19,787 nucleotides of DNA from a virus, in the IMG/VR virus record IMGVR_UViG_3300010413_000009, positions 81,629-101,415 of that record, one strand, 5' to 3'. Under the pieces are notes generated by a model, which saw only the letters and a program-made list of their open reading frames with translations, searched no databases and was not told the DNA's origin. The position numbers and the translations under genes were made by a program. Numbering within the stretch: the stretch's first letter is position 1; the number at the start of each line of letters is the position of its first letter. Positions 1 to 18,788 of this stretch are shown piece by piece.

Positions 1-1588
1 ATTCACTGATGATTTTGTTCGCGAGTTTCGGATACCATTCCAAATCACGGTTCGCGATCGAGTCATCGTCGAACCAAACGAGCCAGTTCGTCTCGATTGG
101 GTTAGTTTCATCCCAAAACAGCTGCCTCATGGCTGGATATTTCTTCCTGTTGCCATCATTCAGCACCAAAGTATGCACTGTTCCGTCGTCACGCAGCCGT
201 TCAAGCCATGCGCGCGTCTCCATACAGAGCTGATTCGTCACAATCCGTATCTGTCGTCGCAGCGGAGACGTCGTTTTGAGAATGCTACCGAGGCACGCAC
301 GGTGCATGTCTGGGTAATTTCCGTACATCAGTATGCAAATCGTCATCGACCCGCCGATAATCGGGTCATCGAACGGGTCTTCGCGCAATATCGGTGTCAC
401 CGGCTTCGCCGCTTTGTGCCGCTGCTGCGAAAATGCGTTGATGAGTGTTGGTACGCCCGGCTCTGCGGGCGCTGCAGCCGGCTTTACGGCCTCCAAAAGA
501 GTCTCAAGAGGGGCAAAAAGGTCGATTTTCGTAGGATGGAGCACGCGTTTTGGCGGAATTGGTGCATTAGGTAGGGCCAAATCGCGCGGGCTGCCAATAG
601 CTGGCAGTGTTCCATCCTTGTAGTAGCTCATTACCGCCTCCAAGACGTGTTCTACAGTGATCATGCGCAAGCATTCGGGTATTGTCTGTCCAAAACCATC
701 GTCAACTGGCAGTTTACAGTATGATCGATGCTTGTCCTTTTGGGTATGTAAGACTTTGTTTTTCCAGCACCCGCGATCACGGCAGCATTCGAGCAGTCCC
801 TGGGTATGCAAATAGCGATGTGGCACGCGCACAGACTGTGAGTATGGGCCGAAATTCTCTACACCGACCACATTGACGTAGGCTTCCCACCACCAATGCT
901 CGCGCCCGCCGGCAATGCAGACACAAGGCTTGTCAAAGCACGCAGCCATGTGCATCAGACTCGTGATCGGACAGATAACGCCGTCTGAATGGTGTACAAG
1001 CCATACCAGATCGCGCAAATTCGTCTGTCCGAGTAGATCTAGCACACCATCGACAGGAGGATTGACGCAATCTCTGGAAGTTGCGCCGCATCGTATGAGT
1101 TTCAATCCCGCGTCGCGAAGCTTATTGATCAATTGCTGCCAGCGCGTTGCCGACCACGCCTTCGTTGTGAAGTCTGTCTTGCTGCCAGGCACGACAATCC
1201 AGTAGCGCTCAGCGATCGGGGAGTTCTTGTAGTGCCAATCATCAAGATGCAGGTCACCCTTCGGATACAAGCACGGTACTGGCATGCCTACGCGATGTTC
1301 GAACTCGCGATGGAACGCCGTGACGAAATGCAGTTTGTGGTGATTGGATAGCTTTATGTATCTCCCATAACCCAAATCAACACGCTTGATGTGCCTCGGG
1401 GGTCGACTATGATTGCCCGCGATGTATGGATTATGATCCCACAGTGTTTTGCAGTGTGTAGCAACATGAATTTCGTACTTACCGGGATACGTTAAGGCGA
1501 GATCTCTCGGTAACGCGGTCAGGCAAGTGATATCGCCAGGCGCACACCCGTGTGTAAGCAGGAGCGGTTCTGCTGAATTTGATCCCAT
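1..1588 (-). CDS. Fused glycosyltransferase, partial: N-terminal GT9 (heptosyltransferase-like) domain and C-terminal GT2-like domain. ATG at 1588; the C-terminus lies beyond the left window edge.
   Basis: Hand translation of the minus strand from the ATG at 1588 gives one open frame to position 1, which the ORF track omits because there is no in-window stop. The N-terminus reads MGSNSAEPLLLTHGCAPGDITCLTALPRDL ... WIVVPGSKTDFTTKAWSATRWQQLINKLRDAGLKLIRCGA ... LVHHSDGVICPITSLMHMAACFDKPCVCIAGG. This matches the GT9 pattern of a GD(v/i) N-terminal segment, a K/T-K-xW acceptor region and an xDxGxMHLAAAxxxPxVxLFG-like C-terminal segment. Further on comes SMTICILMYGNYPDMHRACLGSIL ... NWLVWFDDDS, a GT2-like N-terminal stretch with a DxD motif. 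The start lies 8 nt downstream of the preceding gene's stop. Confidence 0.6.
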   Translation of the reverse strand, partial: MGSNSAEPLLLTHGCAPGDITCLTALPRDLALTYPGKYEIHVATHCKTLWDHNPYIAGNHSRPPRHIKRVDLGYGRYIKLSNHHKLHFVTAFHREFEHRVGMPVPCLYPKGDLHLDDWHYKNSPIAERYWIVVPGSKTDFTTKAWSATRWQQLINKLRDAGLKLIRCGATSRDCVNPPVDGVLDLLGQTNLRDLVWLVHHSDGVICPITSLMHMAACFDKPCVCIAGGREHWWWEAYVNVVGVENFGPYSQSVRVPHRYLHTQGLLECCRDRGCWKNKVLHTQKDKHRSYCKLPVDDGFGQTIPECLRMITVEHVLEAVMSYYKDGTLPAIGSPRDLALPNAPIPPKRVLHPTKIDLFAPLETLLEAVKPAAAPAEPGVPTLINAFSQQRHKAAKPVTPILREDPFDDPIIGGSMTICILMYGNYPDMHRACLGSILKTTSPLRRQIRIVTNQLCMETRAWLERLRDDGTVHTLVLNDGNRKKYPAMRQLFWDETNPIETNWLVWFDDDSIANRDLEWYPKLANKIISE

Positions 1589-1596
1589 GAACAAAT

Positions 1597-2679
1597 TCAC
1601 CACTTCCAGATAGGACAGTGCTCCGTTGCTATCCTGATTTTGTTGCGCAGCGGCCGATTTTTGTCAAACGCGTCTAGCATCGCTGGCAAATTTGGCTCAT
1701 TGCCGTGTATTCCGCAACCGCAGCGCGTGCAATACCCGTCCCAGTAGTAAAAACATGGCTGACAGTGGCCGGTGTAGCAATCCTCCACTTCAGCGTCTGT
1801 CCGAAGTGGCTTTCCTTCTTGCAGCCAGTTGTTCAGCGCGATTTCGAGCAACTTCTTCTTCGAAAGAGGCGATGTTTCGCTCCGCGGGCGCCTGCCGAGC
1901 GGAGTCATCGCTTGTGGAAACGCAACACGCGGTCTGAATATCGGCAATGGGCCGTGCAGGGTAATACTTGGGTCAAAATCGGGCAAATCCACGCCCAAAA
2001 TACGTGATGCCGCGTCCAATTTGGCACTGATGGCGGCATCATCGGAGATCATGACGCGATTTAGGTGCAGCCAACACGGCTCGCACCATTCGAAGTGGTA
2101 TTTAGCCGGATTTTCCAGCCTGTCGAAGTATTTCACCCTGTCCGGTACCCGTATAAGGCGATGCGCCGCGTACGATTTGGCTGTCGCAGGGCCGCGCAAC
2201 CTGTTTTGCGCGATATTGCTCTTCTGTATTGCTGGTGCCTCGGTATCGAACGCCAGCCATGTAGGCCAAAATCGCTGCTCGCCGTCACGTAACTGCCCCC
2301 GCCCGGCTATATCATTGCCGTCTAGCAGCAAACTTACGTCCAGATTTCTTGTCGGCAGCGTGTCGCTCTGCAATACGGCAATAAATCGCTCTGGTTGGGT
2401 TATCGCATGCCGTTTTAATTGAGCAATGATGGCCCAGACACGCCGTGTCAGATGCAGCCCGCCAATATCCTCCGAGATTTCAAGGATTTCGACGCCAAGT
2501 TGTGCCGCTGCGTCGTCTAATAAGCATCTTTCACCGGCCGAAAAGGCTGGATCGCCGCCAAACGGGCCCTGAACGACGATAATTCGCGTCAAATCGGCCA
2601 CGTGTTTGCGTAAAAGGCTAATTTGCGCGGGTAACGTGCGGAATCTATGTGAAACCAACGTGTAAACTGCTGTGCTCAT
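1597..2679 (-). CDS. Hypothetical protein with a C-terminal Cys/His-rich cluster, putatively metal-binding. The start is placed at ATG 2679 rather than the track's 2775.
   Basis: The track ORF 1597..2775 begins with a TTG codon (caa at 2773-2775) and would overlap the upstream gene by 92 nt. The in-frame ATG at 2679 (MSTAVYTLVSH...) sits just after the upstream stop at 2684-2686. The C-terminal segment reads CYTGHCQPCFYYWDGYCTRCGCGIHG. No family was recognised from memory. It is co-directional and contiguous with its neighbours. Confidence 0.45.
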   Translation of the reverse strand: MSTAVYTLVSHRFRTLPAQISLLRKHVADLTRIIVVQGPFGGDPAFSAGERCLLDDAAAQLGVEILEISEDIGGLHLTRRVWAIIAQLKRHAITQPERFIAVLQSDTLPTRNLDVSLLLDGNDIAGRGQLRDGEQRFWPTWLAFDTEAPAIQKSNIAQNRLRGPATAKSYAAHRLIRVPDRVKYFDRLENPAKYHFEWCEPCWLHLNRVMISDDAAISAKLDAASRILGVDLPDFDPSITLHGPLPIFRPRVAFPQAMTPLGRRPRSETSPLSKKKLLEIALNNWLQEGKPLRTDAEVEDCYTGHCQPCFYYWDGYCTRCGCGIHGNEPNLPAMLDAFDKNRPLRNKIRIATEHCPIWKW

Positions 2680-2683
2680 GATC

Positions 2684-4534
2684 TCAACTGATTGATACCG
2701 TCGGAACTTGCCCTGTTGGGCTGCAGCCTTCCTGCACAATGTGCATCGTATATGTGCCTTGTGGCGGGCAACCAAACACCGCCGTGCGCGGCTCGCTCAT
2801 CCAGGCAATTTCCTCGAGATTTGTTTCAGGATCGCACGATGTGCCGCCAATCTCTAAGTACCAGACATCGCAATCGCACGTCAGATTGACCCAGATAATG
2901 ACACATTCATAGCCGCTGGGGTATTGTTCATCATAGTAGTAGCATGTACCGTCCCCATTCGTCGTCTTCGCCGGGGTGAATGTTGCATTGAAAATATCAC
3001 AATACCCGGTGAGCCCGCTTACAGAGATGGTTTTGGATGATGGGCATTCGCTACATGTCGAGCAGTCCGTGCAGCACGCCAATGATGGCGAACCTGTGGC
3101 CGAGCCGGTCGCCGTGAACGTAGCGGCACTCGGCAATTCGAGCTCGCCGACATCGCCCTCGTAGGCATCAGTAACTGGCGTGCAATTGCTATTGGTTGTG
3201 AAATACCATGTGCCTGTAGTGTCGCCGTTATCGACGTAGCACAAATACCAGCTCCCGCCGTATTGCTGATACTTCGGCATGCCGTTGTAATAGCCGACAA
3301 TGTTGTAGTAGCCAACAACACTCTCCGAGCATCCGCTACAGGTTACTTCATAACCACCGGAATCACACGGGCCGACGCTAGAACTCGACAACGAGCTTAA
3401 TGATTCTGATGAAAGACTACTAAACATCGAGGACGAAGACGACGGAGGGCATTCGCAGTACCAAACAATCTCGCCATAAAAGCGTCCCGTGATGCACGGA
3501 TGCCCGTGATGATCGGTACCGCTATAAAACCTCCACCAACCTTCACCGCCACCGCCGCCGCCTCCATCAGGACATTCGTCAGGATCACCCCAGGTGACCA
3601 GACATTCGCTAGCCATATCGTCTTTACATTGGCACCAGATCCACGCGCTGCAATCACCGGATACCGCGCAAGCGCCACCATCTTGCCCGAGAACATTATC
3701 AGGCGTGGTATCTGCAACGATCGGCAGCTTCCCGATTTGCCAAGCGAGTGTGGGAAAGTCTGGATATGGGCAGCTTTCGAGCGACTCGACAAGACTGCTT
3801 AGGCTACTGCTGAGGCTGCTGAGACTGCTGAGACTGCTGAGACTTGAGGATGGCGTACAGCAATAACCAACCATCAGCGTTTCGCCATAGAACCGCCCAA
3901 CTACTGGCGGCGGGCCAAGCTCATTGCAGCCACCCCGAAACACCCAATGACCGCTGCCAGTAGCTCCCGCTGGACACTCTTCTGTGTTTGGGCAATCAGG
4001 TTTGCATCCGGCGATCGTGTTGTACTCAGGATCCCCGGCGCATGGGCACCATGTCCAAACACCAAGTGCGCCCTCGCCGCATTCTTCCTCCGGAAAGATA
4101 AGCTGTGGTACGTAGGTGCTGCCTTGATAATCGCCAATGGGCGTATTCCAAGGAAACGGCGGCGATGGTATATCCGGACAGACGTATCCGTACTCTGATC
4201 TGTATGACCAATGACTGCCGCCAGAAATGGTCTCGGTAGGGCAGCGACAGATTATCGAGACCTCGCCATAGAACGTGCCGTCATAGCACGGCGGCCCAAG
4301 ACACGGATCACCGCACTTGATGCTCCACGTGCCCTCACCCGCACATGCAGTATCGCATGTGTCGTCCATCGGGCATGAGCTATCAGACCGTATGCACTCA
4401 CTTGTGAGCGGACCGCATGCGCACCAGACCCAGATAGAGCATTCTGAATCTTCGTTGGTCGGATATTCAGTATCCGTAGGCGTGTCGTTGAATGTCGGCC
4501 ACGTAGGTAACCCACACGTCGGATCGATCGGCAT
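2684..4534 (-). CDS. Very cysteine-rich 616-aa protein with a triplicated Cys/Trp module, Ser-Leu tandem repeats and a poly-Gly run. Candidate receptor-binding fibre or adhesin-like protein. No N-terminal signal peptide is evident.
   Basis: ATG at 4532-4534 follows directly after the upstream TAA: TAATGACCGATG. Three paralogous segments are present: (i) SIWVWCACGPLTSEC...TFYGEVSIICRCP, (ii) GVWTWCPCAGDPEY...GRFYGETLMVGYCCTPSSSLSSLSSLSSLSSSLSSL and (iii) SAWIWCQCKDDMASEC...GGGGGGGEGWWRFYSG...GRFYGEIVWYCECPPSSSSSMFSSLSSESLSSLSSSS. The C-terminal region carries additional CxC, CxxC and CDCD motifs. The protein contains dozens of Cys residues. Confidence 0.5.
   Translation of the reverse strand: MPIDPTCGLPTWPTFNDTPTDTEYPTNEDSECSIWVWCACGPLTSECIRSDSSCPMDDTCDTACAGEGTWSIKCGDPCLGPPCYDGTFYGEVSIICRCPTETISGGSHWSYRSEYGYVCPDIPSPPFPWNTPIGDYQGSTYVPQLIFPEEECGEGALGVWTWCPCAGDPEYNTIAGCKPDCPNTEECPAGATGSGHWVFRGGCNELGPPPVVGRFYGETLMVGYCCTPSSSLSSLSSLSSLSSSLSSLVESLESCPYPDFPTLAWQIGKLPIVADTTPDNVLGQDGGACAVSGDCSAWIWCQCKDDMASECLVTWGDPDECPDGGGGGGGEGWWRFYSGTDHHGHPCITGRFYGEIVWYCECPPSSSSSMFSSLSSESLSSLSSSSVGPCDSGGYEVTCSGCSESVVGYYNIVGYYNGMPKYQQYGGSWYLCYVDNGDTTGTWYFTTNSNCTPVTDAYEGDVGELELPSAATFTATGSATGSPSLACCTDCSTCSECPSSKTISVSGLTGYCDIFNATFTPAKTTNGDGTCYYYDEQYPSGYECVIIWVNLTCDCDVWYLEIGGTSCDPETNLEEIAWMSEPRTAVFGCPPQGTYTMHIVQEGCSPTGQVPTVSIS
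3794..3847. repeat. Imperfect tandem repeat of a 9-nt unit (gag[a/g]ctgct), about five to six copies, inside the Cys-rich CDS. It encodes (SSL)n.
   Basis: The sequence ...actgcttaggctactgctgaggctgctgagactgctgagactgctgagact... is read directly. The reverse-strand frame gives SSLSSLSSLSSLSSSLSSL. A nearby GGC/GGT codon run at about 3537-3560 encodes GGGGGGG. Confidence 0.8.
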
Positions 4535-4540
4535 CGGTCA

Positions 4541-4930
4541 TTAGTCCACGGGAACTGGCGGCGCTTTTACCGCTATGAATTTTGTGAGCTGGTCAACGTC
4601 GATGATGCCTATATGATACCGCCAGTTTTCCTTGCCGTCGAACCGCCAGCAGATAAGTAGCTGCGGTATGGAGTTTGACTTGGTGCGCTTCATGCATTCG
4701 GCTGCAACCTGCCTGTACTCGTCGATATCGATGTAGACGTAAACGATGTCGCGCAAGTTGCCGCGTTTCTCGAGCACCGGCAATACCTTATCCCGCACAT
4801 GATGACACGGTCCGCACCAAGTTGCGCCCAGCATCACGAGCAACGGCTCATCTTCCTTCAGGGCCTTCTGATATGCCTCAGTATACGGATTGGGCGCCGC
4901 GGCGAAGAGCAACAGGATTAGCGCGTACAT
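4541..4930 (-). CDS. Thioredoxin-fold thiol-disulfide oxidoreductase with a WCGPC active-site motif and an N-terminal hydrophobic signal peptide or membrane anchor.
   Basis: The translation reads M(SIM)YALILLLFAAAPNPYTEAYQKALKEDEPLLVMLGATWCGPCHHVRDKVLPVLEK... The segment ALKEDEPLLVMLGATWCGPC aligns with the canonical thioredoxin beta-strand plus WCGPC motif. The hydrophobic N-terminus replaces the first Trx strand, as in TlpA/ResA/DsbE-type membrane-anchored proteins. The track start at 4939 is a GTG (cac); the ATG at 4930 is preferred. The gene overlaps the stop of the upstream 339-aa gene (4936-4938) in either case. Confidence 0.65.
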   Translation of the reverse strand: MYALILLLFAAAPNPYTEAYQKALKEDEPLLVMLGATWCGPCHHVRDKVLPVLEKRGNLRDIVYVYIDIDEYRQVAAECMKRTKSNSIPQLLICWRFDGKENWRYHIGIIDVDQLTKFIAVKAPPVPVD

Positions 4931-4935
4931 GATGC

Positions 4936-5955
4936 TCACATCCCAGTGAAAAGGAGCCCAGTCTGAGGCGGCAGTATATGCCGCAGCATCTCCTCCAGAT
5001 TGTTCAACGAATCGTAGTGCCGCACTTTGATGACAATGCAGCTATCGAGATCGAGCTCGTGCGGAGGTTTCGTCAAAGCAGTGCCACCAGCCATGCCCGC
5101 AGGTACTATGACATTACTGCTAGCACCCAGTTCCATATCTGGCTGAAACTCGCTGATCTCAAAGGATTTGATGAGCGGCGTATTCGCAGGCGGCGTAGAG
5201 CCCACAGGCGCGCCCAGGACGTCGTCCTTGTCGATGCGGTAGATATTGCGCGTCGTGGCTAGAAAGCGCCCACGGCGATCTGTGGCGTCCACAAGGACTG
5301 TTTCCTGCCCGTCGGCAAGCGGCACACCCAGGAACGCGGCCACGGCCCGCTGGAGCCCCCCGGTAGTGGTACCTTTGACATGGCAATCGGCGATAGCATT
5401 GATAGTACGCTTGTACCGGAGATACTCCTCATGCCCGCCTTCGGTGGGTCTTGGAAAGTCGTAGATATAGCCGAGGTGCTTCTCGACGTACCCCCGATCG
5501 AATTGTGCGCGAATTCCCCACAGATAAGCCGTGTCATCGCTGTGCGATATCAAGCTGTCAGTGAATGGATCTTTCACGAATTCTATGATGGATTCGTGAA
5601 TTTGGTAGTCTATCCCTTCATGCAATACCCGCGTCGCGTTTGTGACACGATTCAGCAAGAGCGGCACGCTATACAGCCCCGGCGGCTTCGGAAACAGGCT
5701 CTCGTGATTGTCGCGCGGAAGTTCCAACAGAAATCGGCGCTCAGTATGGTACAGTGGTACCGACAGCCGCCCGGCGCATGCCAGCACTTCCTCGAGATTC
5801 TGGCGCTGCTGCGCGCAAAGCTCAAGATTCGCGCGTACGAGGGCTAGCAGCGGGCTATTACCGGCGTAATACTGTGTCCATAGTGAGCCCAAGAGGGCCA
5901 GAGTATCGCGCGCTTGCTTCTGGGAAAGCGTACCCTTTTGTGGTAGTTCAGGCAT
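4936..5955 (-). CDS. Hypothetical 339-aa protein. It is the first gene after the AT-rich gap and may be a fibre-attachment or baseplate-distal component.
   Basis: ATG at 5953-5955. The gene is co-directional and translationally coupled to the downstream thioredoxin gene. It sits immediately after a gp25-like/J-like pair, where gpI-like or fibre genes sit in P2/Mu-type tail modules. No motif was recognised. Confidence 0.4.
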   Translation of the reverse strand: MPELPQKGTLSQKQARDTLALLGSLWTQYYAGNSPLLALVRANLELCAQQRQNLEEVLACAGRLSVPLYHTERRFLLELPRDNHESLFPKPPGLYSVPLLLNRVTNATRVLHEGIDYQIHESIIEFVKDPFTDSLISHSDDTAYLWGIRAQFDRGYVEKHLGYIYDFPRPTEGGHEEYLRYKRTINAIADCHVKGTTTGGLQRAVAAFLGVPLADGQETVLVDATDRRGRFLATTRNIYRIDKDDVLGAPVGSTPPANTPLIKSFEISEFQPDMELGASSNVIVPAGMAGGTALTKPPHELDLDSCIVIKVRHYDSLNNLEEMLRHILPPQTGLLFTGM

Positions 5956-6133
5956 GGCTTACGTCAGTTTGTATTCGCTGCTATGTACGTATATTTTTGC
6001 ATTATTGAGTTACGCACGCTGTAAATCCTTTAGTACTAAAGACTTACAACGCGGCTAATAGATGCTAAATATTCGTGCATATCGCGGACCCCTCTCTTAC
6101 GTCAATTTCAAGAGTTTATTTAAGCGACACTTT
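5956..6133 (-). promoter_or_regulatory. AT-rich 178-bp intergenic spacer between the Baseplate-J-like gene and the accessory cassette. It is a candidate internal promoter or module boundary.
   Basis: It is the only sizeable non-coding gap in the operon and is markedly AT-richer than its surroundings (ttgtattcgctgctatgtacgtatatttttgcattattgag...). On the transcribed strand it contains TTGAAA, TTGACG and TTTACA-N15-TAATGC-like hexamers, but none gives a clean sigma-70 -35/-10 pair. Confidence 0.3.
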
Positions 6134-7594
6134 TCACGACACCGTTACGTCTTCCGGACGAAGGAAAGCCGCAGTGACCCGGTTGAGAATACGGTCGCCA
6201 CTGACCTGGACCTCCAGTATGGAATCGGGGTCTGGCGCGGCGGCTATGACCCGGAAATCGGTTGGTGCCTCGCCAATCGGCAATCCGTTAACGTAGTTGG
6301 CGATGGCCTGCTGAATTGCCGACTTGTCGGCTTTAGCGCCTCTGCGCAACTGCACGTCGACCTTTATCCACGCAGGTTTTGCAGCGAATACAAGGACGTC
6401 GAGGCCAGGCTGCCGGATTTCCGGGCCATCCAGATAGTCCTGAATAGTTGCAACGTGCGGCATCGCCAGCAGTGTCAGATCAAACCGGCGGAAGCTTTCG
6501 CCTTCGGTCAGCCCGAAAGTCTCGCCGAGTTGCTCGATCTGCAAGGTTGCCGTTTGGTAACGGCTGAATCGCGCCTGCTCATACGTTTCTTCGAGCACTT
6601 TGCAATCGCTGATGCGCAAATCGGCATCGACGGCATGTGCGTCTGCAACATGGTAGAAGCCCGGAGCAGCATCACTATCAACGAACACGCGCCAGACGGA
6701 GCGCTTCTCCTCTTTTGTCACCAATCTCCCCAGAGCAATACTGCCGATTTGCGCAGGGTATGGTTGGCTGCGCAGGTAGATATCGATCCTGCCGCCTTTC
6801 GAGATTCCGTCACTTCCCGCATCCCTCGTCATTTCAGGATCGCCGGCGCCAATGACGGCAATATCCATGATGTCGGGCACGCGCTTTCGTACGAGTGCTT
6901 TGATATTTCCGCGCCCTGCGAAACTCGGAGTAGCAATGCTGGTACGCATCTGCCTGATCAATTCCTCGTTCGATTGTGCGGCAACGCCGCCTGTAAAATC
7001 ATGCGTGGCATAGGCCATATCGAAGCCTACCGGACGGATTGCAGGAACAAGAACATCATGGCGCTTGAGGTTGGCGTCGGGATGCATCGAAGCAGCTACC
7101 ACAGGCACTTGTATCGTGAACTTGCCGTCATCGCGCTCCACAGCGGCGACAGAGTGCCGCGTGAGGCCTACCGACCCGGGCGGCTTAACGCTAATTGGTT
7201 CGCTGACATAGAACAGCTGACCACGCGCGCGGAATTTGCTGTTGAGACCAAAATTGAGCCCGCTGCACCGCGTAAGCACAATAGTGATAGTCCCGGTTGC
7301 CTTGGTTGCCATACGCCGAGAGACACCGTAATTGGACGCTAATGCATCGACAGCCGCGTCGTCGGCCAGCGATGGATCTAGCGCGAGCTCCATCGCAGAT
7401 AGCGAGCGCCGCAGCCGCTCGATAGCCGCCATACTCGCGCCCTGCAACATGGCGTGCAGCCCGGTTACTAGATCGCCAACGACACCGCGACGTACATTCA
7501 AGTCCGGGCATTCCTCGGCGACAAATTGTGCGATCAGATCATGCGCGGCGGTTACCTGCGCATCATCTAATTCATCTGGATTCGGCCAATACAT
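6134..7594 (-). CDS. Baseplate J-like (gp6/gpJ-like) baseplate wedge protein.
   Basis: It is a 486-488-aa protein immediately downstream of a gp25/GPW-like gene, matching the canonical W-J order. The track start at 7600 is TTG (caa). The ATG at 7592-7594 (MYWPNPDELDD...) is preceded by AGGAG-N6 (aacctAGGAGttgcagATG), which overlaps the upstream TAG stop. The family call rests mainly on size and synteny; no diagnostic motif is recalled. Confidence 0.5.
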   Translation of the reverse strand: MYWPNPDELDDAQVTAAHDLIAQFVAEECPDLNVRRGVVGDLVTGLHAMLQGASMAAIERLRRSLSAMELALDPSLADDAAVDALASNYGVSRRMATKATGTITIVLTRCSGLNFGLNSKFRARGQLFYVSEPISVKPPGSVGLTRHSVAAVERDDGKFTIQVPVVAASMHPDANLKRHDVLVPAIRPVGFDMAYATHDFTGGVAAQSNEELIRQMRTSIATPSFAGRGNIKALVRKRVPDIMDIAVIGAGDPEMTRDAGSDGISKGGRIDIYLRSQPYPAQIGSIALGRLVTKEEKRSVWRVFVDSDAAPGFYHVADAHAVDADLRISDCKVLEETYEQARFSRYQTATLQIEQLGETFGLTEGESFRRFDLTLLAMPHVATIQDYLDGPEIRQPGLDVLVFAAKPAWIKVDVQLRRGAKADKSAIQQAIANYVNGLPIGEAPTDFRVIAAAPDPDSILEVQVSGDRILNRVTAAFLRPEDVTVS

Positions 7595-7603
7595 CTGCAA
7601 CTC

Positions 7604-8032
7604 CTAGGTTGGTATCGGCAATTTGATTGTCTTTCGTCCGGCTTCCGTGATCAGGACGATCTCCAAGCATACAACATCTGGCTGGATGTCAATGCTGACG
7701 AGATCGAGATCTGTCAGTCGCTGCTCGGGCGGATCATCCGGGACAGCCTCTGCACGAAGCGCGGCGACGATGTAGCTCTTCGATAGCCGAAACTGACCGA
7801 AGACATCCGCCTCAGTGTTGATATCGCCGTGGCGCCATGCCGAGATGAACGGGCACGCACGTTCCACGCTGCGCCCGAACGAATAACGTGCGCTCTGCGG
7901 TTCGGTTAGTAACACGCACATGACCCGCTGGACGAGTTCGTCCATGCCGTTAACCGCATCACAACCGTCATCAAACCATGGCAGGACGAAATCGTTTTCA
8001 TCGACACGCCATGCCGAGATGTCATTATTCAT
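7604..8032 (-). CDS. gp25/GPW-like baseplate wedge protein.
   Basis: The 142-aa protein contains LTEPQSARYSFGRSVERACPFISAWRHGDINTEADVFGQFRLSKSYIVAALRAEAVP followed by a C-terminal beta-strand-like LVSIDIQPDVVCLEIVLITEAGRKTIKLPI. This resembles the T4 gp25 pattern of a ...RxFxPxFG... loop, then an ExxIxxAIxxxEPR-like helix, then hydrophobic C-terminal strands. The size is typical. The ATG overlaps the upstream stop as ATGA. Confidence 0.55.
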   Translation of the reverse strand: MNNDISAWRVDENDFVLPWFDDGCDAVNGMDELVQRVMCVLLTEPQSARYSFGRSVERACPFISAWRHGDINTEADVFGQFRLSKSYIVAALRAEAVPDDPPEQRLTDLDLVSIDIQPDVVCLEIVLITEAGRKTIKLPIPT

Positions 8033-8469
8033 GATGTATCAAGCAGCTCTTGTACGTAGCCTTCGACGGATGCTTTGTGGACGCCGTACGTTACATTACC
8101 ATGCGCTCCGCGGCGTGCCGCAAGCAACATGAGCGCGCGCGTCGGCGTTCTGTGCCGATCCCTGAACGCACGCTCCATCATGCCCATGTAGCAAATCTCG
8201 AGGTTGCGCCCCATTGCTACTTTGCTTTTGTTCTCCCCGGTGCCCGCATATTCCGCACTGTAACCAGAATTGGACGTAGTCCGATTGAACGGATCGCCCA
8301 TATTCGGAATGTCGACGGGGTTGAACGTCCACCCGCCTGTATATCCGGCAGGAATCATCCAGAAGCGCTGCGTGCCCGGCGGCGATTGCTGTAGATAACC
8401 GGAGATCGCCTGTCCGAATGTCGCCATGTCGTCCATTAGCGACGAAAATTGTGGGTTTACACTGGCCAT
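8029..8469 (-). CDS. Hypothetical 146-aa protein, a possible small baseplate or spike component.
   Basis: ATG at 8467-8469 overlaps the TAA of the sigma gene as TAATG. Its stop overlaps the gp25-like start as ATGA. Its position is immediately upstream of the gp25-like gene. Confidence 0.4.
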   Translation of the reverse strand: MASVNPQFSSLMDDMATFGQAISGYLQQSPPGTQRFWMIPAGYTGGWTFNPVDIPNMGDPFNRTTSNSGYSAEYAGTGENKSKVAMGRNLEICYMGMMERAFRDRHRTPTRALMLLAARRGAHGNVTYGVHKASVEGYVQELLDTS

Positions 8470-9209
8470 TAGAGGATCTCCAGGGATTCACGCTGATCGA
8501 TTTTTCGCTGTATTTGTGCCATTCTGTGGCTCACGGCAGCTGGGCTGATTTTCAGCTGTGATGCGACCGCAATCGGTCTCGTTTTCGGATGTCCGTGCAA
8601 TCCGAGCACGCGCTCCATAATGAACTGGTTCGTAGGGTCAAGATCATCATAGACGAATTCCAGCCATGCGTCATGCTCTTCAGTGATGGGGCGCACGCGC
8701 GGATCGTACATACCAGCCCCTTCCTCGCCTGGACGCGTAATTGTGCCTGTGGCAAGCGGACGTCCGCTGCCGCGAATGTATTTCAACCGCTTCATCGACA
8801 GCCCGGTGTAGTCGGCGATTTCGTTATCGGATGGTGGACGTCCAAGCCGTTCCTCCAATTCCCGTGCCGCCGCCTCTGAACGCATCTGGTCGAGCGCAAC
8901 CTGCTCTGGGACGCGAATGATCTGTCGATGTTGTGATGCTAGCCGGCGCAATCGCTGCAATCGCGACATCAGATGTGTTTTAAGTGGGCCTTTGGCCGGG
9001 TCGTAAGAGGCCATTGCGTTTGCGGCCAGCCGCTTTGCCTGCGACTTCATGGTTACGCCGCGGGCTGACGGGCCGGCATAAGTTCGCAGTGCTGTATTCA
9101 GCACCGGATCGATAGCTTTCAGCATACGCCCCATGTTAGTTGGCGAAGGATCGTCTAGCCACGTGCTGTATGGTTTCTGCAGTTCTGGTTCCAGTAGGTT
9201 CTTTGGCAT
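8469..9209 (-). CDS. Sigma-70 family RNA polymerase sigma factor of small (group 3/4-like) size, embedded within the tail gene cluster.
   Basis: The segment KTHLMSRLQRLRRLASQHRQIIRVPEQVA fits the region 2.4/3.0 pattern (RxIRxPxH). The segment LGRPPSDNEIADYTGLSMKRLKYI resembles region 3/4.1. The C-terminal NQFIMERVLGLHGHPKTRPIAVASQLKISPAAVSHRMAQIQRKI is a region 4.2 helix-turn-helix. The start has a GAGGT Shine-Dalgarno 7 nt upstream (TGAGGTAGCCACGATG), which overlaps the upstream gene's TGA stop. Confidence 0.7.
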   Translation of the reverse strand: MPKNLLEPELQKPYSTWLDDPSPTNMGRMLKAIDPVLNTALRTYAGPSARGVTMKSQAKRLAANAMASYDPAKGPLKTHLMSRLQRLRRLASQHRQIIRVPEQVALDQMRSEAAARELEERLGRPPSDNEIADYTGLSMKRLKYIRGSGRPLATGTITRPGEEGAGMYDPRVRPITEEHDAWLEFVYDDLDPTNQFIMERVLGLHGHPKTRPIAVASQLKISPAAVSHRMAQIQRKIDQRESLEIL

Positions 9210-9219
9210 CGTGGCTACC

Positions 9220-10896
9220 TCATGTACAGCTGCCAGTTGTGCTTGGGCACGTTGCAGACGCTGTCAGGTTGTAATCGCCTGCAAACACATTGCTATACAG
9301 TGGATGCGCCGTCACCGTATAGTTATCGCTGTTGTGCTCGGCCTCAGTACGCACATGTGCCATTCGGAAGGCTGTATAGCATCGCTGATGCTGCGCATCG
9401 AAGAAATGGGTAGTGCGCACCACGGTGCCGTAGCGCTTTTCTCCGGCGCCGGGTGGTTGTGACGAACCAGTCGTTCCCTGAAACGAAATAGTCGATCCTG
9501 GCGAGATATCAAAGCGTACGGGCCCAACGATATCACCCCAACGGTTCTTGAGTAGTTCGTTGACGTACATAGCATGGGCCAGTTCGTCGAGCAATATTTC
9601 TGCATCCAGCTTCTGATCGACTGGATCTGGCACGACCGCGTTAGGTGTGCCGGCGCCTGGATGGTTATGCGCATTGCCGCGGACGCTATTGATACCAGTA
9701 GAATCCGCTGTGAACACTGATGGGATCACGAACTCAGAGAGATACTTAGGTGCCCGCTTCAGGATAACGATCCCATCGTTCCTGCCGACGTACATTCCGC
9801 CGATGGTGTCATCATTAACCGCGTCGTCAGGGATAAGGTTGCCGCCAGCACGCGAACCGTGCCCAGCAAAGTAGCCGACAGCGCGGGTAGCCCGGGGCAG
9901 GAACGCATTCATGTCCTGCTGCGACATATCGATCGACTCGATCGTGGCCGCCGCAGCGTATGGATTCCACTCAGCACGCAGCCCGGGAATGAACGGCACG
10001 ATAGCCGCGCGCTCAGGATACGGAATCAGCTTGAAGAAGAACTTCGGCGATAGCTCATTCACGATCTTATCCCAGAACGTGGTATGCGCCATCGCGTGCA
10101 TTGTGTTCGAGATATTGGAAGGTGTGAGCGTCGTCACAGCGATATCATCGGCAATGGCCATTGCTGCGATGTCCGCATCAACCCCGCCTGGGATTTTGAA
10201 TTGTAACGTCTCACTACCAGTATTGATCAGGCTAAGCGCCGCTTTCGCCTCGTGATTCACGCTATCGTTCGTATCGTTGCCGCCTTTCGCCTGGAACTGT
10301 ACGATGTTAATTCGATCTTCACAGGCAAGTTCATTGAACCATGGAAGTAATGCATCGCCCCAGAGATCTACCTGTATGTTCGTGGCCGTTACGACAGACT
10401 GCGCGGCCGTGCGCGCCACGAAATGCGTCAACGCGCCACCAGACGGATCTAAAGCAATCGCGGAATTGAAGATGAAATGCGTCGGATTCTGTGGGTGACT
10501 CGTTGCACTCAGCGTCGAGGCGAAGCTTAATGCACTAAGCCAGTGTGTACCCTCTACAGTCATGGCGTATCCATTATGCACGCGCCGATAACCAACGCCA
10601 GTAACCCATCCACAGAACAGTACGTACGTCCCGGCGGGCCATACGCGGGGCGTACCGGTCGCTGTCGATGTCACCTTGACTACAAGTGGAATTTGCAGGG
10701 GTGTATTGAGCCCGGCAGCAGTATGAGCTGTCGATGCCGTGTACGGAGGTAGCGCAGTGTAGCCGACGGGGAGCACGGCAGTGCAGCTAGGAATTCGATT
10801 CATCTCGTACGAGACTTCGAATTGCACGAGCTCCACTGTGACCGGCGTTGCGCCGATCTCCGCCCAGAGATCGAAATCGATTGCTACATAACTCAT
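9220..10896 (-). CDS. Hypothetical 558-aa structural protein, a candidate baseplate hub or central component.
   Basis: The long ORF is co-directional, and its ATG at 10894-10896 overlaps the upstream stop as ATGA. Its composition is rich in Thr, Ser, Ala, Gly, Asn and Val and is beta-like. It occupies the position between the tape-measure candidate and the gp25/J pair, where hub proteins sit in Mu/P2-like modules. No motif was recognised. Confidence 0.4.
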   Translation of the reverse strand: MSYVAIDFDLWAEIGATPVTVELVQFEVSYEMNRIPSCTAVLPVGYTALPPYTASTAHTAAGLNTPLQIPLVVKVTSTATGTPRVWPAGTYVLFCGWVTGVGYRRVHNGYAMTVEGTHWLSALSFASTLSATSHPQNPTHFIFNSAIALDPSGGALTHFVARTAAQSVVTATNIQVDLWGDALLPWFNELACEDRINIVQFQAKGGNDTNDSVNHEAKAALSLINTGSETLQFKIPGGVDADIAAMAIADDIAVTTLTPSNISNTMHAMAHTTFWDKIVNELSPKFFFKLIPYPERAAIVPFIPGLRAEWNPYAAAATIESIDMSQQDMNAFLPRATRAVGYFAGHGSRAGGNLIPDDAVNDDTIGGMYVGRNDGIVILKRAPKYLSEFVIPSVFTADSTGINSVRGNAHNHPGAGTPNAVVPDPVDQKLDAEILLDELAHAMYVNELLKNRWGDIVGPVRFDISPGSTISFQGTTGSSQPPGAGEKRYGTVVRTTHFFDAQHQRCYTAFRMAHVRTEAEHNSDNYTVTAHPLYSNVFAGDYNLTASATCPSTTGSCT

Positions 10897-11357
10897 TTGC
10901 GTGCGCGCTCCGTGCAGTAAACCATAGCCAGTACCAGCGCGCCAAGCTTGTATGGTAATTGGTCACTGTTCTTCCACAACTCGAACAATATTTCGTTCGT
11001 CTCTTCCGCGGTATCGCCGAACAATTCCCGCTCACTTGCCGGAGTGAGCACAGCTGCGAGTTGCGGAACGAATGCTGCCAGATCATCGCAATCTGATCCA
11101 AAATGAATATTGTCGAATGGCAGATACGTTATGCGCGGGTCTGGTGCCAACACGAGATCTTCAAGTTCGGTGGCGTGCACCAACTGCATAAGCTGCCTGA
11201 TGCGCAACTGATTGGCGGGCGTGCGACCGAATAGCACGACTTTGAGCTTGTCAACTACTTCCGGAACTGGCATCGGAACAAAGTCCGGGTCGACATACTC
11301 GTCGCTGGGATAGCCCGGCGGCATGTTTTGTAGCAGTGTTCTTACGTGGTTGATCAT
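10893..11357 (-). CDS. Hypothetical 154-aa protein.
   Basis: ATG at 11355-11357 overlaps the upstream stop as ATGA. The gene is co-directional and lies in the tail module. Confidence 0.4.
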   Translation of the reverse strand: MINHVRTLLQNMPPGYPSDEYVDPDFVPMPVPEVVDKLKVVLFGRTPANQLRIRQLMQLVHATELEDLVLAPDPRITYLPFDNIHFGSDCDDLAAFVPQLAAVLTPASERELFGDTAEETNEILFELWKNSDQLPYKLGALVLAMVYCTERARK

Positions 11358-11806
11358 GATGGTATCGTCTTGAAATTGAATTGGAATCGCGCCAGTCGCG
11401 ACTCTGGATTCATGTACTGAAACGTACCGCCCACAAGGAAACCAACAGCTACGTATCCGGCGAATTGCAGCGCCAGTGCTGTACCGGTCGCGGCAATCCT
11501 ATAGTTGGTATAGTAGGTAATAGCTGTCGTAAGGCCGTGAACGAAATTGGCGCATTCCAGCCCCGCGATGCCCGTGACCACAACATCACCCATGCGCTCG
11601 CCGAATACATAGACGTACGTATAGTTGCGCAGCGTGAGCAGAAACTGGTAGTTGCCGGCTGTGCTCGCGCTAACACCCGCTAACGCTGCATTCTGCGCAG
11701 AAACACCTTGCGACCAGTTAGCCATCTGAAAGTTGATCACACCGGCAGTTGCCGTTGAGAGCACTTTCATAACGCCTGAACCGACGCCACCGAACATGTA
11801 AGCCAT
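11354..11806 (-). CDS. Hypothetical protein of about 150 aa with a hydrophobic stretch. The start is re-assigned to ATG 11806.
   Basis: The track ORF 11354..12022 would overlap the upstream 668-aa gene by about 210 nt. The internal ATG at 11804-11806 (MAYMFGGVGSG...) lies 5 nt after the upstream TAA and is preceded by AGGAG-N9 (ggcgcAGGAGcgtaacataATG). The segment IAATGTALALQFAGYVAVGFLVGG looks like a transmembrane region. Confidence 0.4.
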   Translation of the reverse strand: MAYMFGGVGSGVMKVLSTATAGVINFQMANWSQGVSAQNAALAGVSASTAGNYQFLLTLRNYTYVYVFGERMGDVVVTGIAGLECANFVHGLTTAITYYTNYRIAATGTALALQFAGYVAVGFLVGGTFQYMNPESRLARFQFNFKTIPS

Positions 11807-11810
11807 TATG

Positions 11811-13817
11811 TTACGCTCCTGCGCCCATAGGCTGCGCTGCAACTCCGTGGACGTCCCCGCCCGCGTTACCCGCGTCCTTCCACATATCTCCCCAGTTCGT
11901 GATCTCGACCGGTGTGACGCCGCTGCCGCCCTGTCCCGGCCGTGTTGGCGCATCGTTTTGAAGCGGGTTCTCCTTGGCGGGCTCATTTCCGGCGCGGTCA
12001 CCCCGCATTGCCTTCCTGTCACGATCGTACCCGCCGAAAAAGCGCGCTAAAAGCTTGCCTGCATCATCTGCTTCACCGACGCCGCGCATGATACGCCCGA
12101 CCGGACCCTCCTGTGCCTCTGCCGCATGCTTTTGGTCTTCTGCCGCAGCGGCCTCCGCCTCCTCCGTGGTCTGCCTAATCGAGCCCAGCATCTCCTTGCT
12201 ATGCAGTGCTGCCGCATGTCCGGCACCCCCGCGGTAACCGCGACTGATTGCGGCTTCGCCGGCGGCACCCATTGCGACCGTGGCTGCAGACTCCGCACGA
12301 CTGCCGCGCAATCCCATCTTATTGAGTCGCTTGATGACAGCTTCGCGCACTTCCTCCTGAGATTGTCCTGCGGTATCGCGGATAACATCGGTGACGCCCT
12401 GCCCGAGCTGCATTGCGCGGCGTGCGCCCATGTGTCCGCGCGTGCCTAGCTGGTTAGCGACTGCCCGGCTCATGAAGTCACCGACATCAGCATCCCACTG
12501 CGTTTCGCGTACCGCACCGGCTACTTCAGCGCCGTACAGCCTGCGGTTTTCATTGCGCTGCTGTAGCATAGTCAAAGCATCAGTCATGTTGACACCGCTG
12601 CCGCGCATCAAATTGCGGAACTGTCCAGGTTCCGTAATGTTGAATTCGCCTTTATCTTTGAGGTTCGTGTACGCCTTGAACGCCTGCGAACCCTTACGCA
12701 ACATTCCAGTCTCGCCCATGCGCATCAGCGCCGACGCCATATTGCCGGATTCACTCTGGCCTGCCTGCACAGTGAGCAGAGCATCCTGCTGCATCAGTTC
12801 AGATGCACTCACGCCTGCCGCCCGGATAAGTCCCTGTCCCTTATCTTTCGCGTAAGCGCCGAATGCCATAGCATGCTGTCCAGCACCGACACCTTGCAGC
12901 ACGTCACCGCCGAGTTCCACCGCACGCATACCCGCCGCCTGCTGAAGACCAAGTGCCTCACCAGCCGAGATATTAGCGCGCTGCGACAGCTGCTTGAACA
13001 TTCGCACTTGATGTTCGAGAACATCATTATCGACGCCGCGGCCAAAGCCGCCCATCGTCATGACGTCTAGTGTCTGTAACATTTGGGTGGGTGGCAATGC
13101 TGCAAATGGACCGCCAAGATCGCGGACGGCGCTCGCGGAATGCGAAATCGAACGGCCGAACTCATGTCGTTGTTCCTTCGACATATTGAGATAATCAGCC
13201 GGCCCGACACCCATATCCTGCGCTGCGCGTACCAGACCAGAAACACGGCCTTTGCGGAAACCACGAGTCTCTTCAGGACGCAATTCGCCCATCTGCGCCG
13301 TAATCTGGCTTGTTGCAGCGCGCAGCTGCTGCTGGTTCATCCCGGTCCCGGGCATATCTGGAATCTGCATGCGATTACGGAGCATTTCCGAGTAATTCGC
13401 TGCGGCCTGGCCACCACCCATACCCAATTCATCGAGGACGTCGCCAGGCATCATCGTGCCGAGAAACGGCATTGCCGCTCCCATCATTCGGCCAAAATCG
13501 GCTGTTTGGGCGAATGCCGATGCTTCCTGGCCAATCTTGGGAGTTAGCAGCCCCATCCCGACGAGACCGCCGCCGGGTTGAGTGCCCATGATGAAATCTT
13601 GGAAGCCCTTGGCCGCCTCAGGCGCACCGATATCCATGATGGACTGCATCTGGCCTGACGAGAACTCACGGGCACGGCGCGTATCCATGATGTTCTGGTT
13701 CGGCTGCCACTGGCCAAAGTCCATGCCTTTCGGCATAATCTGCGGGCCGAGCATCTGGATGACCATATCCAGCAACGGATTGCCAGTATAGCTTGCGTCA
13801 GGACGCCAGGCGGGCAT
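11811..13817 (-). CDS. Low-complexity 668-aa protein rich in Met, Gly, Ala and Gln. It may be a tape-measure or internal virion protein.
   Basis: The composition shows runs such as MGGAMPFLGTMMPGDVLDELGMGGGQ and MQIPDMPGTGMNQQQL. It lies between the tube-side genes and the baseplate genes. ATG at 13815-13817 is preceded by GGGGAAG. No catalytic motif was seen. Confidence 0.4.
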   Translation of the reverse strand: MPAWRPDASYTGNPLLDMVIQMLGPQIMPKGMDFGQWQPNQNIMDTRRAREFSSGQMQSIMDIGAPEAAKGFQDFIMGTQPGGGLVGMGLLTPKIGQEASAFAQTADFGRMMGAAMPFLGTMMPGDVLDELGMGGGQAAANYSEMLRNRMQIPDMPGTGMNQQQLRAATSQITAQMGELRPEETRGFRKGRVSGLVRAAQDMGVGPADYLNMSKEQRHEFGRSISHSASAVRDLGGPFAALPPTQMLQTLDVMTMGGFGRGVDNDVLEHQVRMFKQLSQRANISAGEALGLQQAAGMRAVELGGDVLQGVGAGQHAMAFGAYAKDKGQGLIRAAGVSASELMQQDALLTVQAGQSESGNMASALMRMGETGMLRKGSQAFKAYTNLKDKGEFNITEPGQFRNLMRGSGVNMTDALTMLQQRNENRRLYGAEVAGAVRETQWDADVGDFMSRAVANQLGTRGHMGARRAMQLGQGVTDVIRDTAGQSQEEVREAVIKRLNKMGLRGSRAESAATVAMGAAGEAAISRGYRGGAGHAAALHSKEMLGSIRQTTEEAEAAAAEDQKHAAEAQEGPVGRIMRGVGEADDAGKLLARFFGGYDRDRKAMRGDRAGNEPAKENPLQNDAPTRPGQGGSGVTPVEITNWGDMWKDAGNAGGDVHGVAAQPMGAGA

Positions 13818-18326: not shown

Positions 18327-18788
18327 CTACGTAACCGCATAGGTCATGTAGAGGAAGACAAACCCGAGTTGCTCGTTGACAACCATGTCCTGCGCCGAGA
18401 CGGCGCCGCCGTAACTGTTGAGCACAACGGATGCCATCACCAGCGTAATCGTACTCGATGACACGCCGCCGGCACAGGCCGCGTCAGCAGTAACTGTCAG
18501 CGTATTCGTGTCAGCATAGCAGACGTTGCCGTACTTCTCGAAGAATGCCGCGGCAAGCGCTGATGGACCCATGACTCGAGACATGGAACCTTGCCCAGCC
18601 GTGCGACCTTGTACCAACACGACATCCGTTGAAGTGACGTCGTACAGTCGCGTGATGTTCTGCTGGTATTGCCACTGCAGGTTCTGCACTAGCAGACCCG
18701 TGTACTTCGAATCGAAAGTGATCGTGGCACCATCAGCGGAGAACGCACCACCGTACGTGATGGTATTTGAAAACATGTCGGTAGCCAT
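18327..18788 (-). CDS. Tail tube-like protein (153 aa).
   Basis: Its size is typical of contractile-tail tube proteins, and it lies immediately downstream of the sheath gene. It has the strongest ribosome-binding site in the window (caAGGAGGttgttagccaATG). The composition is beta-rich, with a Gly/Ala/Thr/Ser/Val bias. Confidence 0.5.
   Translation of the reverse strand: MATDMFSNTITYGGAFSADGATITFDSKYTGLLVQNLQWQYQQNITRLYDVTSTDVVLVQGRTAGQGSMSRVMGPSALAAAFFEKYGNVCYADTNTLTVTADAACAGGVSSSTITLVMASVVLNSYGGAVSAQDMVVNEQLGFVFLYMTYAVT

Follow-up and report, generated by a model that had tools for sequence, protein, structure and literature searches.

Trimeric phage fibres stapled by metal are known from T4, in which the gp37 tip holds Fe2+ by HxH motifs and gp12 contains Zn. 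Collagen type III carries a C-terminal cystine knot, collagen-like repeats are obligate trimers, and collagen-like tail fibres occur in phages. The small Cys-rich carbohydrate-binding modules of fungal CBM1 and of hevein/CBM18 typically have O-glycosylated Ser/Thr linkers. The GT9 family of glycosyltransferases is best known for heptosylation of the lipopolysaccharide (LPS) core. Glycosylation in mycobacteriophages reportedly has Ser/Thr-rich tails as acceptors, with tail-tube proteins also said to be targets. Phage-encoded glycosyltransferases glycosylate mycobacteriophage capsids (Che8 and others; PMC11256854, citing Freeman et al. 2023), and it is in these capsids that virion glycosylation has been documented so far (PMC11256854). 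The GT9-family enzymes TibC and Aah O-heptosylate Ser residues of the adhesins TibA and AIDA-I in the cytoplasm, and TibC has a Cys4 iron finger (C339, C342, C358 and C370) inserted after the catalytic C-lobe (PMC4358343). Here we describe a Cys/Trp-rich protein of 616 amino acids (aa) encoded by a viral DNA stretch of 19,787 nucleotides (positions 81,629 to 101,415 of IMG/VR record IMGVR_UViG_3300010413_000009; this whole stretch is called the window below). Judged from sequence and gene order, the protein is very probably a tail-fibre or receptor-binding-type virion protein, and it is probably coupled in some functional way to a glycosyltransferase encoded downstream.

The 616-aa open reading frame (ORF) lies on the minus strand at positions 2684-4534 and starts with ATG. 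A first, sequence-only reading had raised the possibility that the true coding frame was on the opposite strand; the plus-strand translation of this interval is riddled with stops. The protein contains 51 Cys (8.3%), 21 Trp, 73 Ser and 71 Gly residues, and is organized as follows.

Positions 2684..4534, minus strand: 616-aa Cys/Trp-rich modular protein, putative tail fibre or receptor-binding protein (ORF; 15 homologues; position after baseplate genes)
Positions ~4490-4516, 4148-4180 and 3740-3772, minus strand: pre-module motifs, aa 7-15, 119-129 and 255-265
Positions 4235..4447, minus strand: module 1, aa 30-100, 12 Cys, near-invariant C38, C40, C54 and C98 (hidden Markov model (HMM) domain E value 1.5e-23)
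Positions 3854..4072, minus strand: module 2, aa 155-227, near-invariant C163, C165, C181 and C225 (HMM domain E value 2.4e-24)
Positions 3773..3850, minus strand: Ser-Leu linker, aa 229-254, candidate O-glycosylation tract (sequence; 9-bp tandem repeat)
Positions 3443..3658, minus strand: module 3, aa 293-364, near-invariant C301, C303, C321 and C362 (HMM domain E value 8.5e-21)
Positions 3377..3442, minus strand: poly-Ser/Ser-Leu linker, aa 365-386 (sequence; Ser-tract enrichment)
Positions 2687..3367, minus strand: all-beta C-terminal domain, aa 390-616, with a CCxxCxxCxxC cluster, putative swappable receptor-binding domain (predicted local distance difference test (pLDDT) score of ~90 in AlphaFold2 (AF2))

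A search of 5.8 billion proteins yielded 15 homologues, all metagenomic, with 29-46% identity and neither names nor Pfam domains. Their alignment keeps the three modules together with the Cys and Trp positions, contrary to the loss of Cys conservation that had been named as a possible refutation. An assembly or frameshift artefact was ruled out because the homologues keep the frame and the modules share no DNA-level repeat; the lack of any DNA-level similarity among the three modules indicates that the triplication is ancient. Neither Pfam nor PHROGs nor NCBIfam contained a match to the protein itself, PDB sequences searched with a profile gave nothing, and tblastn against 50,697 phage records found no match. 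Similarly, no relative of the fibre was present in 185,579 species-representative genomes, for which reason a prophage or bacterial origin was dropped, and a scan of viral contigs with P0030 revealed no close relative. From these data we conclude that the gene and its triplicated module are real, a point we regard as practically certain.

The three modules are each about 70 aa long, and all of the motifs quoted in the sequence-only reading were found (SIWVWCAC...FYGEVSIICRCP, GVWTWCPC...GRFYGETLMVGYCCTPSSSLSSL and SAWIWCQC...GRFYGEIVWYCECPPSSSSS), as were CxxC, CCxxCxxCxxC and CDCD clusters toward the C-terminus. Pairwise local alignments of the modules scored 116-131 compared to 35 ± 7 for shuffled sequences (z = 11.6-13.0), and the aligned W, W-C, C, W, P, G and C columns were invariant. 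Self-BLASTP of the protein did not report the internal repeat, which is shown by the alignment against shuffled sequences; at a z of ~12 the proposed triplication is borne out. The claim that every copy ends in a Ser-Leu tract was correct for modules 2 and 3 (aa 229-254 and 365-386) and incorrect for module 1, which is followed by TETISGGSHWSYRSEYG.

A profile made of 37 exact module sequences was run against all 1.84 billion cluster representatives (E ≤ 1e-3). Only 38 proteins were recovered, and these fall into two architectures, with three modules or with one. A comparison of repeat copy number among homologues had been suggested; the number is not graded, being three or one and fixed per architecture. 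Single-module proteins consist of an N-terminal domain, collagen-like GPPGxxG repeats, the module, a poly-Ser tract and a variable Cys-rich C-terminus, and the junction between collagen and module typically reads ...CC-x-W-x-W-C-P-C. AF2 modeling of the module alone, using the 37-sequence alignment, gave a pLDDT of 81 and three beta-strands corresponding to WxWCxC, GxWxF and (FYGE)xxxxCxC. The full-length model contained the same three strands in each module, with disordered linkers. No fold match for the module was identified in PDB or BFVD. The module is a domain without a family assignment or detectable fold relative, in agreement with its having gone unrecognized at the outset. If this reading is right, it is a new and very rare protein domain (38 clusters among 1.84 billion representatives).

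Of 91 modules, 50 have a Ser-rich tract behind them, compared to 8.5% of background windows, an enrichment of about 6-fold. Among 22 proteins, such a tract comes after module 2 in 17 and after module 3 in 14; it comes after module 1 in 6. The SSL linker of the window protein is encoded by a 9-bp tandem repeat (4.3 copies, 3806-3844), and short repeats of 6 and 10 bp underlie a Gly7 run in module 3 (3528-3562); both stretches are slippage-prone and could differ in length between strains. A Pro/aromatic-rich motif starting with Cys (consensus CS[IM]PxFPxFxW; CPDIPSPPFPW in unit 2) lies 25-40 aa upstream of each module, so the true repeat unit is approximately 130 aa. Single-module proteins open with similar C-x-[VI]-P motifs. 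Eight homologues (P0002, P0003, P0004, P0006, P0008, P0010, P0011 and P0012) have a domain of ~100 aa inserted in the first loop of module 2 (GxYxxxGxxxGxPxY...WxxW...EWWIS; alignment columns 323-432), and this domain resembles a small sub-domain that follows module 3 (aa ~395-446 of the window protein). Thus, module 2 tolerates a domain-in-domain insertion.

Genomic context was examined by tblastn of the window proteins against 16 related loci. Apart from probable plus-strand shadow ORFs, all long ORFs of the window are on the minus strand and belong to a contractile-tail module. The genes closest to the 616-aa ORF are as follows.

Positions 6134..7600, minus strand: baseplate J-like wedge protein, which fixes the structural context (PF04865, 1.9e-8; phrog_6, 8.6e-22)
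Positions 4936..5955, minus strand: 339-aa protein (p339), possible baseplate-fibre adaptor (position kept in all related loci; no family match)
Positions 4541..4939, minus strand: thioredoxin-fold protein with WCGPC and a hydrophobic N-terminus, optional neighbour (PF00085, 3e-8)
Positions 1597..2679, minus strand: 360-aa protein (p360) with the C-terminal Cys motif ...RIATEHCPIWKW (true start MSTAVY; co-occurs with the C-terminal domain of the fibre)
Positions 1..1594, minus strand: GT9 (heptosyltransferase-family) glycosyltransferase, cut by the window edge (PF01075, 3e-13)

The conserved order is p558, a sigma-like protein, p146, p142, baseplate J, p339, (thioredoxin), the Cys-rich protein, (p360) and GT9. 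This order recurs in about seven distinct lineages, and the related contigs are 90-226 kb long and classed as viral in IMG/VR. The closest isolated phage for the baseplate J protein is Bacillus phage G (26% identity over 39% of the protein). Hence the Cys-rich protein has the location expected of fibres, downstream of baseplate or tail-tip genes, in the ~7 lineages as well as in loci L022 and L066. In the latter two the module protein follows a tape-measure protein and a protein of ~300 aa, which is the tail-tip position of siphoviruses. Since collagen-like repeats trimerize obligately, distant relatives with one module after such repeats are indirect evidence that the module is at work in fibres that are trimers.

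The C-terminal domain (aa 390-616) gave no significant fold match with Foldseek in PDB and BFVD. It is replaced by unrelated domains in the L008/L016 and L014/L015 (P0021) lineages and in P0023, such that a conserved proximal part is combined with an exchangeable distal domain, as is characteristic of fibres. P0022 has no C-terminal binding domain and is fused to an enzyme instead. The C-terminal domains of P0021 and P0023 differ and look jelly-roll-like by eye only, and that of P0033 has a weak Pfam match to Laminin_G_3. Across lineages p360 is present exactly where the aa 390-616 domain is present. The end of p360 carries a conserved CxxC...CxxCxC...NKIRxATEHCPxWKW motif, one of four members matches DUF6171 weakly (E 0.002), and in P0009 the C-terminal Cys motif of p360 is fused to the fibre. 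Comparison of p360 and p339 with PDB gave nothing useful. Domain swapping with a co-travelling p360 is how a receptor-binding domain served by an accessory factor of its own behaves, and p360 may be an assembly or modification factor.

The guess that this is a receptor-binding or adhesive protein fits three features, namely the slot downstream of the baseplate genes, the exchange of C-terminal domains and the existence of collagen-like relatives, and these make a virion protein of the tail-fibre or receptor-binding type very probable. The sequence-only reading had further pointed to a tension between the missing signal peptide and the signal anchor of the neighbouring thioredoxin. We likewise found no N-terminal hydrophobic segment in the 616-aa protein or its homologues, and the tension largely dissolves, as a phage tail protein would assemble in the cytoplasm and be released by lysis, and the thioredoxin is optional. 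The thioredoxin gene occurs in two of the ~7 lineages, i.e. the window and L001/L011, where the L001 homologue combines CPPC with a hydrophobic N-terminus; the L004, L007, L008/L016, L009 and L014/L015 lineages lack it. The thioredoxin is therefore not an obligate partner of the Cys-rich protein, and that possibility was rejected.

Cys statistics were compiled for 87 modules, drawn from 43 proteins. In the module profile, Cys occupies position 9 in 84 of these modules, position 11 in 83, position 27 in 84 and position 71 in 82. Four conserved Cys per domain are what a Cys4 metal site calls for, and losses at these positions are single and uncompensated. Positions 3 and 69 covary strongly, with both being Cys in 48 modules, neither in 36 and a single one in 3 (phi 0.93). 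Other Cys correlations are weaker, and the remaining Cys residues are specific to module type. The number of Cys per module is even in 49 cases and odd in 38, showing no even bias and departing from the even, fully paired Cys of knottin-, EGF- or hevein-type domains; the export signal of such domains was also not seen in the window protein or its homologues. The two CxxC-type knuckles and the fold of a zinc ribbon or rubredoxin were not found in the module either. The single, uncompensated losses and the missing even bias would be accounted for somewhat better by a four-ligand metal site with accessory disulfides than by an all-disulfide knot, but this is not decisive. The sequence-only reading had suggested a knotted disulfide-rich or metal-cluster fold; as to the four conserved Cys themselves, the sequence pattern makes a metal site and disulfides roughly equally probable.

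The strand register implied by the 3-69 pair would place the last conserved Cys at the end of the sheet opposite the CxC. If the four Cys form one cluster, that cluster may therefore lie between the chains of a trimer, and the CC doublets found in relatives where collagen meets module would agree with an inter-chain Cys cluster. These doublets also speak for the alternative that most or all of the 51 Cys are in disulfides, partly inter-chain as in the collagen cystine knot, and that the WCGPC thioredoxin catalyses or proof-reads them. This alternative concerns the working of the Cys only and is compatible with a fibre. It is favoured by the thioredoxin gene, which is the immediate upstream neighbour both in the window and in the L001 lineage, by the one strongly covarying pair, by the Cys numbers of the window modules, which are all even (12, 8 and 8), and by the extracellular operation of the virion. 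However, the thioredoxin is missing from five of the ~7 lineages, its signal-like N-terminus suggests a compartment other than that of a cytoplasmic fibre, and the fibre protein would be produced in a reducing cytoplasm. The lack of even bias over the 87 modules and the uncompensated losses at near-invariant positions, which suit a four-ligand metal site better than two obligate disulfides, also count against it. We consider this alternative a serious possibility that falls somewhat short of an even chance.

The main new result, on which the sequence-only reading did not remark, is a consistent link between the module and a glycosyltransferase. A glycosyltransferase was encoded within one gene downstream, or was fused, in 14 of 14 informative contexts. 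All of the ~7 three-module lineages have a GT9-GT2 enzyme directly downstream or after p360; full-length orthologues are 660-667 aa long and have GT2 as their second domain, as seen in L014 (9230-11233). Compared to the window, these lineages show 47-70% identity in GT9-GT2 and 37-48% in the fibre, and thus the enzyme is more conserved than the fibre. P0022, which was found in two samples, consists of three modules fused in frame to GT9. Among the single-module loci, GT9 is immediately downstream in L017 and L021 and one gene downstream in L023, whereas L057 encodes two module proteins and then GT9. PF01075 matches ranged from 3e-13 to 5e-7 in the window, L014, L017, L021 and L023. The GT9 enzymes from these different fibre contexts are orthologous, being 44-64% identical to the window enzyme, and all that the distant single-module proteins have in common with the window protein is the ~70-aa module. 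The phage GT9 enzymes also contain a conserved Cys cluster, CC-x4-C-x16-C-x14-C (LDCCxDRGCWK-x16-C-x14-C), after the nucleotide-sugar lobe (~640-760 in the window, minus strand).

In L022 and L066 the enzyme immediately downstream of the module protein belongs to the GT1 family. The GT1 gene of L022 is followed by genes for a methyltransferase, two radical-SAM enzymes and a sulfotransferase (7143-13146), and L066 contains GT1 plus a sulfotransferase (6198-9249). These gene sets hint at an elaborately modified, possibly sulfated or methylated, glycan.

The reciprocal test was carried out with 38 IMG/VR loci that contain GT9-GT2 relatives. A module ORF was located just upstream in eight of eight loci at ≥47% identity. 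Several of the more distant loci (35-42% identity) have another small Cys/Trp module, ~C..xC.Y.W....GW.L....C...C.C..PP, and this alternative module is repeated between very long poly-Ser/Thr tracts in L056 (985-3375), L057 (1-1440), L048 (3990-5525) and L039 (4207-5655). The arrangement hints that mucin-like phage fibre proteins linked to glycosyltransferases are a more general theme. Taken together, the genomic contexts make a functional coupling of some kind between the Cys-rich protein and the glycosyltransferase probable. As the glycosyltransferase tracks the module and linker, is part of the same late operon and stays adjacent when the GT family changes, the simplest acceptor is the fibre itself. 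We give the fibre an even chance of being the glycosylation substrate. The overall model, in which the protein is a distal tail fibre or receptor-binding protein of an uncultivated large myovirus-type phage (contigs of 150-226 kb) with linked glycosylation, is one that we favour slightly.

Several observations weigh against this model. The protein resembles no known fibre protein in sequence or fold (PHROGs, Pfam, tblastn of 50,697 phage records, Foldseek of PDB and BFVD with a best E of 0.01-0.05), only ~30 aa precede module 1, which is short for a baseplate-attachment domain, and the window protein itself lacks collagen repeats or another trimer signature. Module 1 is usually without a Ser tract. 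Kinship among the three-module lineages reduces the independent observations of linkage to ~6-7 rather than 14. Furthermore, all 30 of the GT9-GT2 loci at 35-42% identity lack the module, and a strict two-way link between GT9 and module was rejected on this ground. Finally, the GT9 enzyme scored 22-29 bits against cut-offs of 135-467 for LPS heptosyltransferase and Aah/TibC equivalog models (22.2 bits against a cut-off of 200 for TIGR04414). It is sub-threshold for both kinds of model alike, so the acceptor is one that we infer.

The main rival to the fibre as acceptor holds that the modules are aromatic, Cys-stabilized carbohydrate-binding modules that act on a host glycan, and that GT9-GT2 modifies this glycan, e.g. 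the LPS core, masking the receptor so that superinfection is prevented or progeny are kept off debris. Modules rich in Trp, Tyr and Cys with Ser-rich linkers between them would suit such a lectin-like role, and the P0022 fusion resembles a carbohydrate-binding module attached to an enzyme. The top NCBIfam matches of GT9, albeit sub-threshold, are RfaQ and heptosyltransferase III, in keeping with the LPS-core activity for which the family is best known, and seroconversion genes often adjoin tailspike genes. However, it is the conserved module that the glycosyltransferase goes with, not the variable receptor-binding end, and its gene belongs to a late structural operon, in which it overlaps the fibre gene or comes right after it. 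LPS remodelling would pay mainly in lysogeny, and the absence of fibre relatives from the 185,579 species genomes leaves no sign of a prophage lifestyle. In addition, the GT family is exchangeable (GT9 or GT1) while adjacency is retained, and the module has no fold similarity to known carbohydrate-binding modules. We therefore rate this explanation below the fibre as acceptor and consider it unlikely. A non-structural or decoration protein, such as a scaffold or a partner that presents substrate to the glycosyltransferase, or an effector that is secreted or injected and simply encoded at the end of the tail operon, would explain the lack of homology to fibre families, the very short N-terminus and the replacement of the binding domain of P0022 by an enzyme, but is improbable given the slot kept after baseplate J and p339 in all lineages, the slot after tape-measure and Dit-like genes in siphovirus-type loci that is typical of tip or fibre proteins, the collagen-like stalks of relatives and the swapping of the C-terminal domain, including the Laminin_G_3 match of P0033.

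Returning to the fibre as glycosylation substrate, we propose the following mechanism. The fibre protein would be made in the cytoplasm and would probably trimerize. Its N-terminal two-thirds would consist of the three ~70-aa, three-stranded beta modules, each locked by the near-invariant four-Cys cluster (WxW-C-x-C ... C-P ... C) and by lineage-specific accessory Cys pairs. The modules would thus serve as putative staples or nodes of the fibre, joined by Ser-rich linkers, and the C-terminal ~230 aa would be an exchangeable receptor-binding domain that travels with the downstream p360. The module-plus-linker region would be the substrate or docking site of the dedicated GT9-GT2 enzyme encoded downstream, and the Ser-rich linkers would be O-glycosylated, most simply heptosylated. 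The outcome would be a stiff, protease-resistant, glycan-coated stalk. A more specific and more tentative version, which we rate as somewhat less than an even bet, is that module and trailing Ser tract are a portable recognition-and-acceptor cassette of a new phage protein-glycosylation system, giving a 'glyco-stalk' fibre. GT9-GT2, or GT1 in some lineages, would then use the module as docking site and assemble glycans on the fibre, and glycosylated linkers between Cys-stapled trimer nodes would replace the usual beta-structured shaft.

If true, no tail-fibre glycosylation system would precede this one, and a GT9 directed at protein would be known for the first time beyond the autotransporter adhesins. 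It would also represent a new fibre construction of Cys-locked nodes and Ser-rich linkers, and by the neighbourhood rule of module followed by glycosyltransferase, some environmental phages would be expected to put glycans on their receptor-binding organelle. Glycans on the fibre would matter for host recognition, environmental stability and immune evasion in phage therapy, and module and enzyme could offer a compact tag-plus-enzyme pair for protein glycoengineering.

Other features of the window and of related loci lie outside the fibre-glycosyltransferase block.

Positions 18868-19749, minus strand: tail sheath (phrog_279)
Positions 18327-18788, minus strand: 153-aa ORF, probably tail tube by its position beside the sheath (no significant family match)
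Minus strand: 668-aa ORF, Gly/Ala/Met-rich, tape-measure-like by composition only (no family match)
Positions 8469-9209, minus strand: 246-aa protein with a weak Sigma70 region-3 match, inside the baseplate gene block

The 246-aa sigma-like protein is 51-75% identical in every related locus; a sigma-like factor among structural genes is unusual. Two Arg-rich plus-strand ORFs, 6062-7342 (426 aa) and 16934-18118 (394 aa), run antisense to the baseplate J gene and to a 951-aa gene, and are most likely non-coding shadows of these real genes. L001 (16744-18486) and L007 (14706-16421) each have a gene for a TROVE/Ro60 plus vWA protein, located a few kb further downstream than the fibre-glycosyltransferase block. 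The sample of L008 (3300017989) is the metagenome that also gave representatives of mReC, a clade of jumbo phages that encode an RNA polymerase (PMC7481178). Membership in mReC was dropped, the shared sample of origin with this one relative being the only connection.

Comparison with the known systems can now be made point by point. Like T4 gp37 and gp12, the window gene is downstream of baseplate wedge genes, and its product has an exchangeable distal domain and short repeated beta modules with regularly spaced potential ligands (CxC in the window, HxH in T4). Unlike them, it shows no sequence or fold similarity to these fibres, its putative metal ligands are Cys rather than His, and its modules, parted by flexible Ser-rich linkers, do not make up an uninterrupted beta-structured shaft. 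With the collagen III knot it shares, in the single-module relatives, a CC doublet and module directly after the GXY repeats, at the expected site of registration or trimer locking. Unlike in that knot, collagen repeats are absent from the window protein, and the module is a folded domain of 70 aa instead of a two-Cys knot. Small aromatic Cys-rich modules split by Ser-rich linkers are a likeness to CBM1 and CBM18.

As with TibC and Aah, the phage GT9-family enzyme is encoded beside its putative acceptor, whose Ser residues would be O-heptosylated. By its pattern, the CC-x4-C-x16-C-x14-C cluster after the C-lobe of the phage enzymes is reminiscent of C-x2-C-x15-C-x11-C in TibC (PMC4358343). Unlike TibC and Aah, the phage enzyme is far below the TIGR04414 cut-off (22 bits against 200) and has an extra GT2 domain, and its putative acceptor is a fibre with a new Cys module rather than an autotransporter beta-helix. 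The mycobacteriophages are similar in that phage-encoded glycosyltransferases act on virion structural proteins in the cytoplasm, as is proposed here. They differ in being actinobacteriophages with other GT families, whereas the target here would be a fibre and the enzyme GT9-GT2 or GT1, and in that a dedicated conserved Cys/Trp domain accompanies the putative acceptor tract here. No description of a fibre built from this Cys/Trp module with a dedicated GT9-GT2 partner was found in the literature. Virion glycosylation and metal- or disulfide-stapled fibres are already known, and what is new is the module fibre with its dedicated GT9-GT2 partner.

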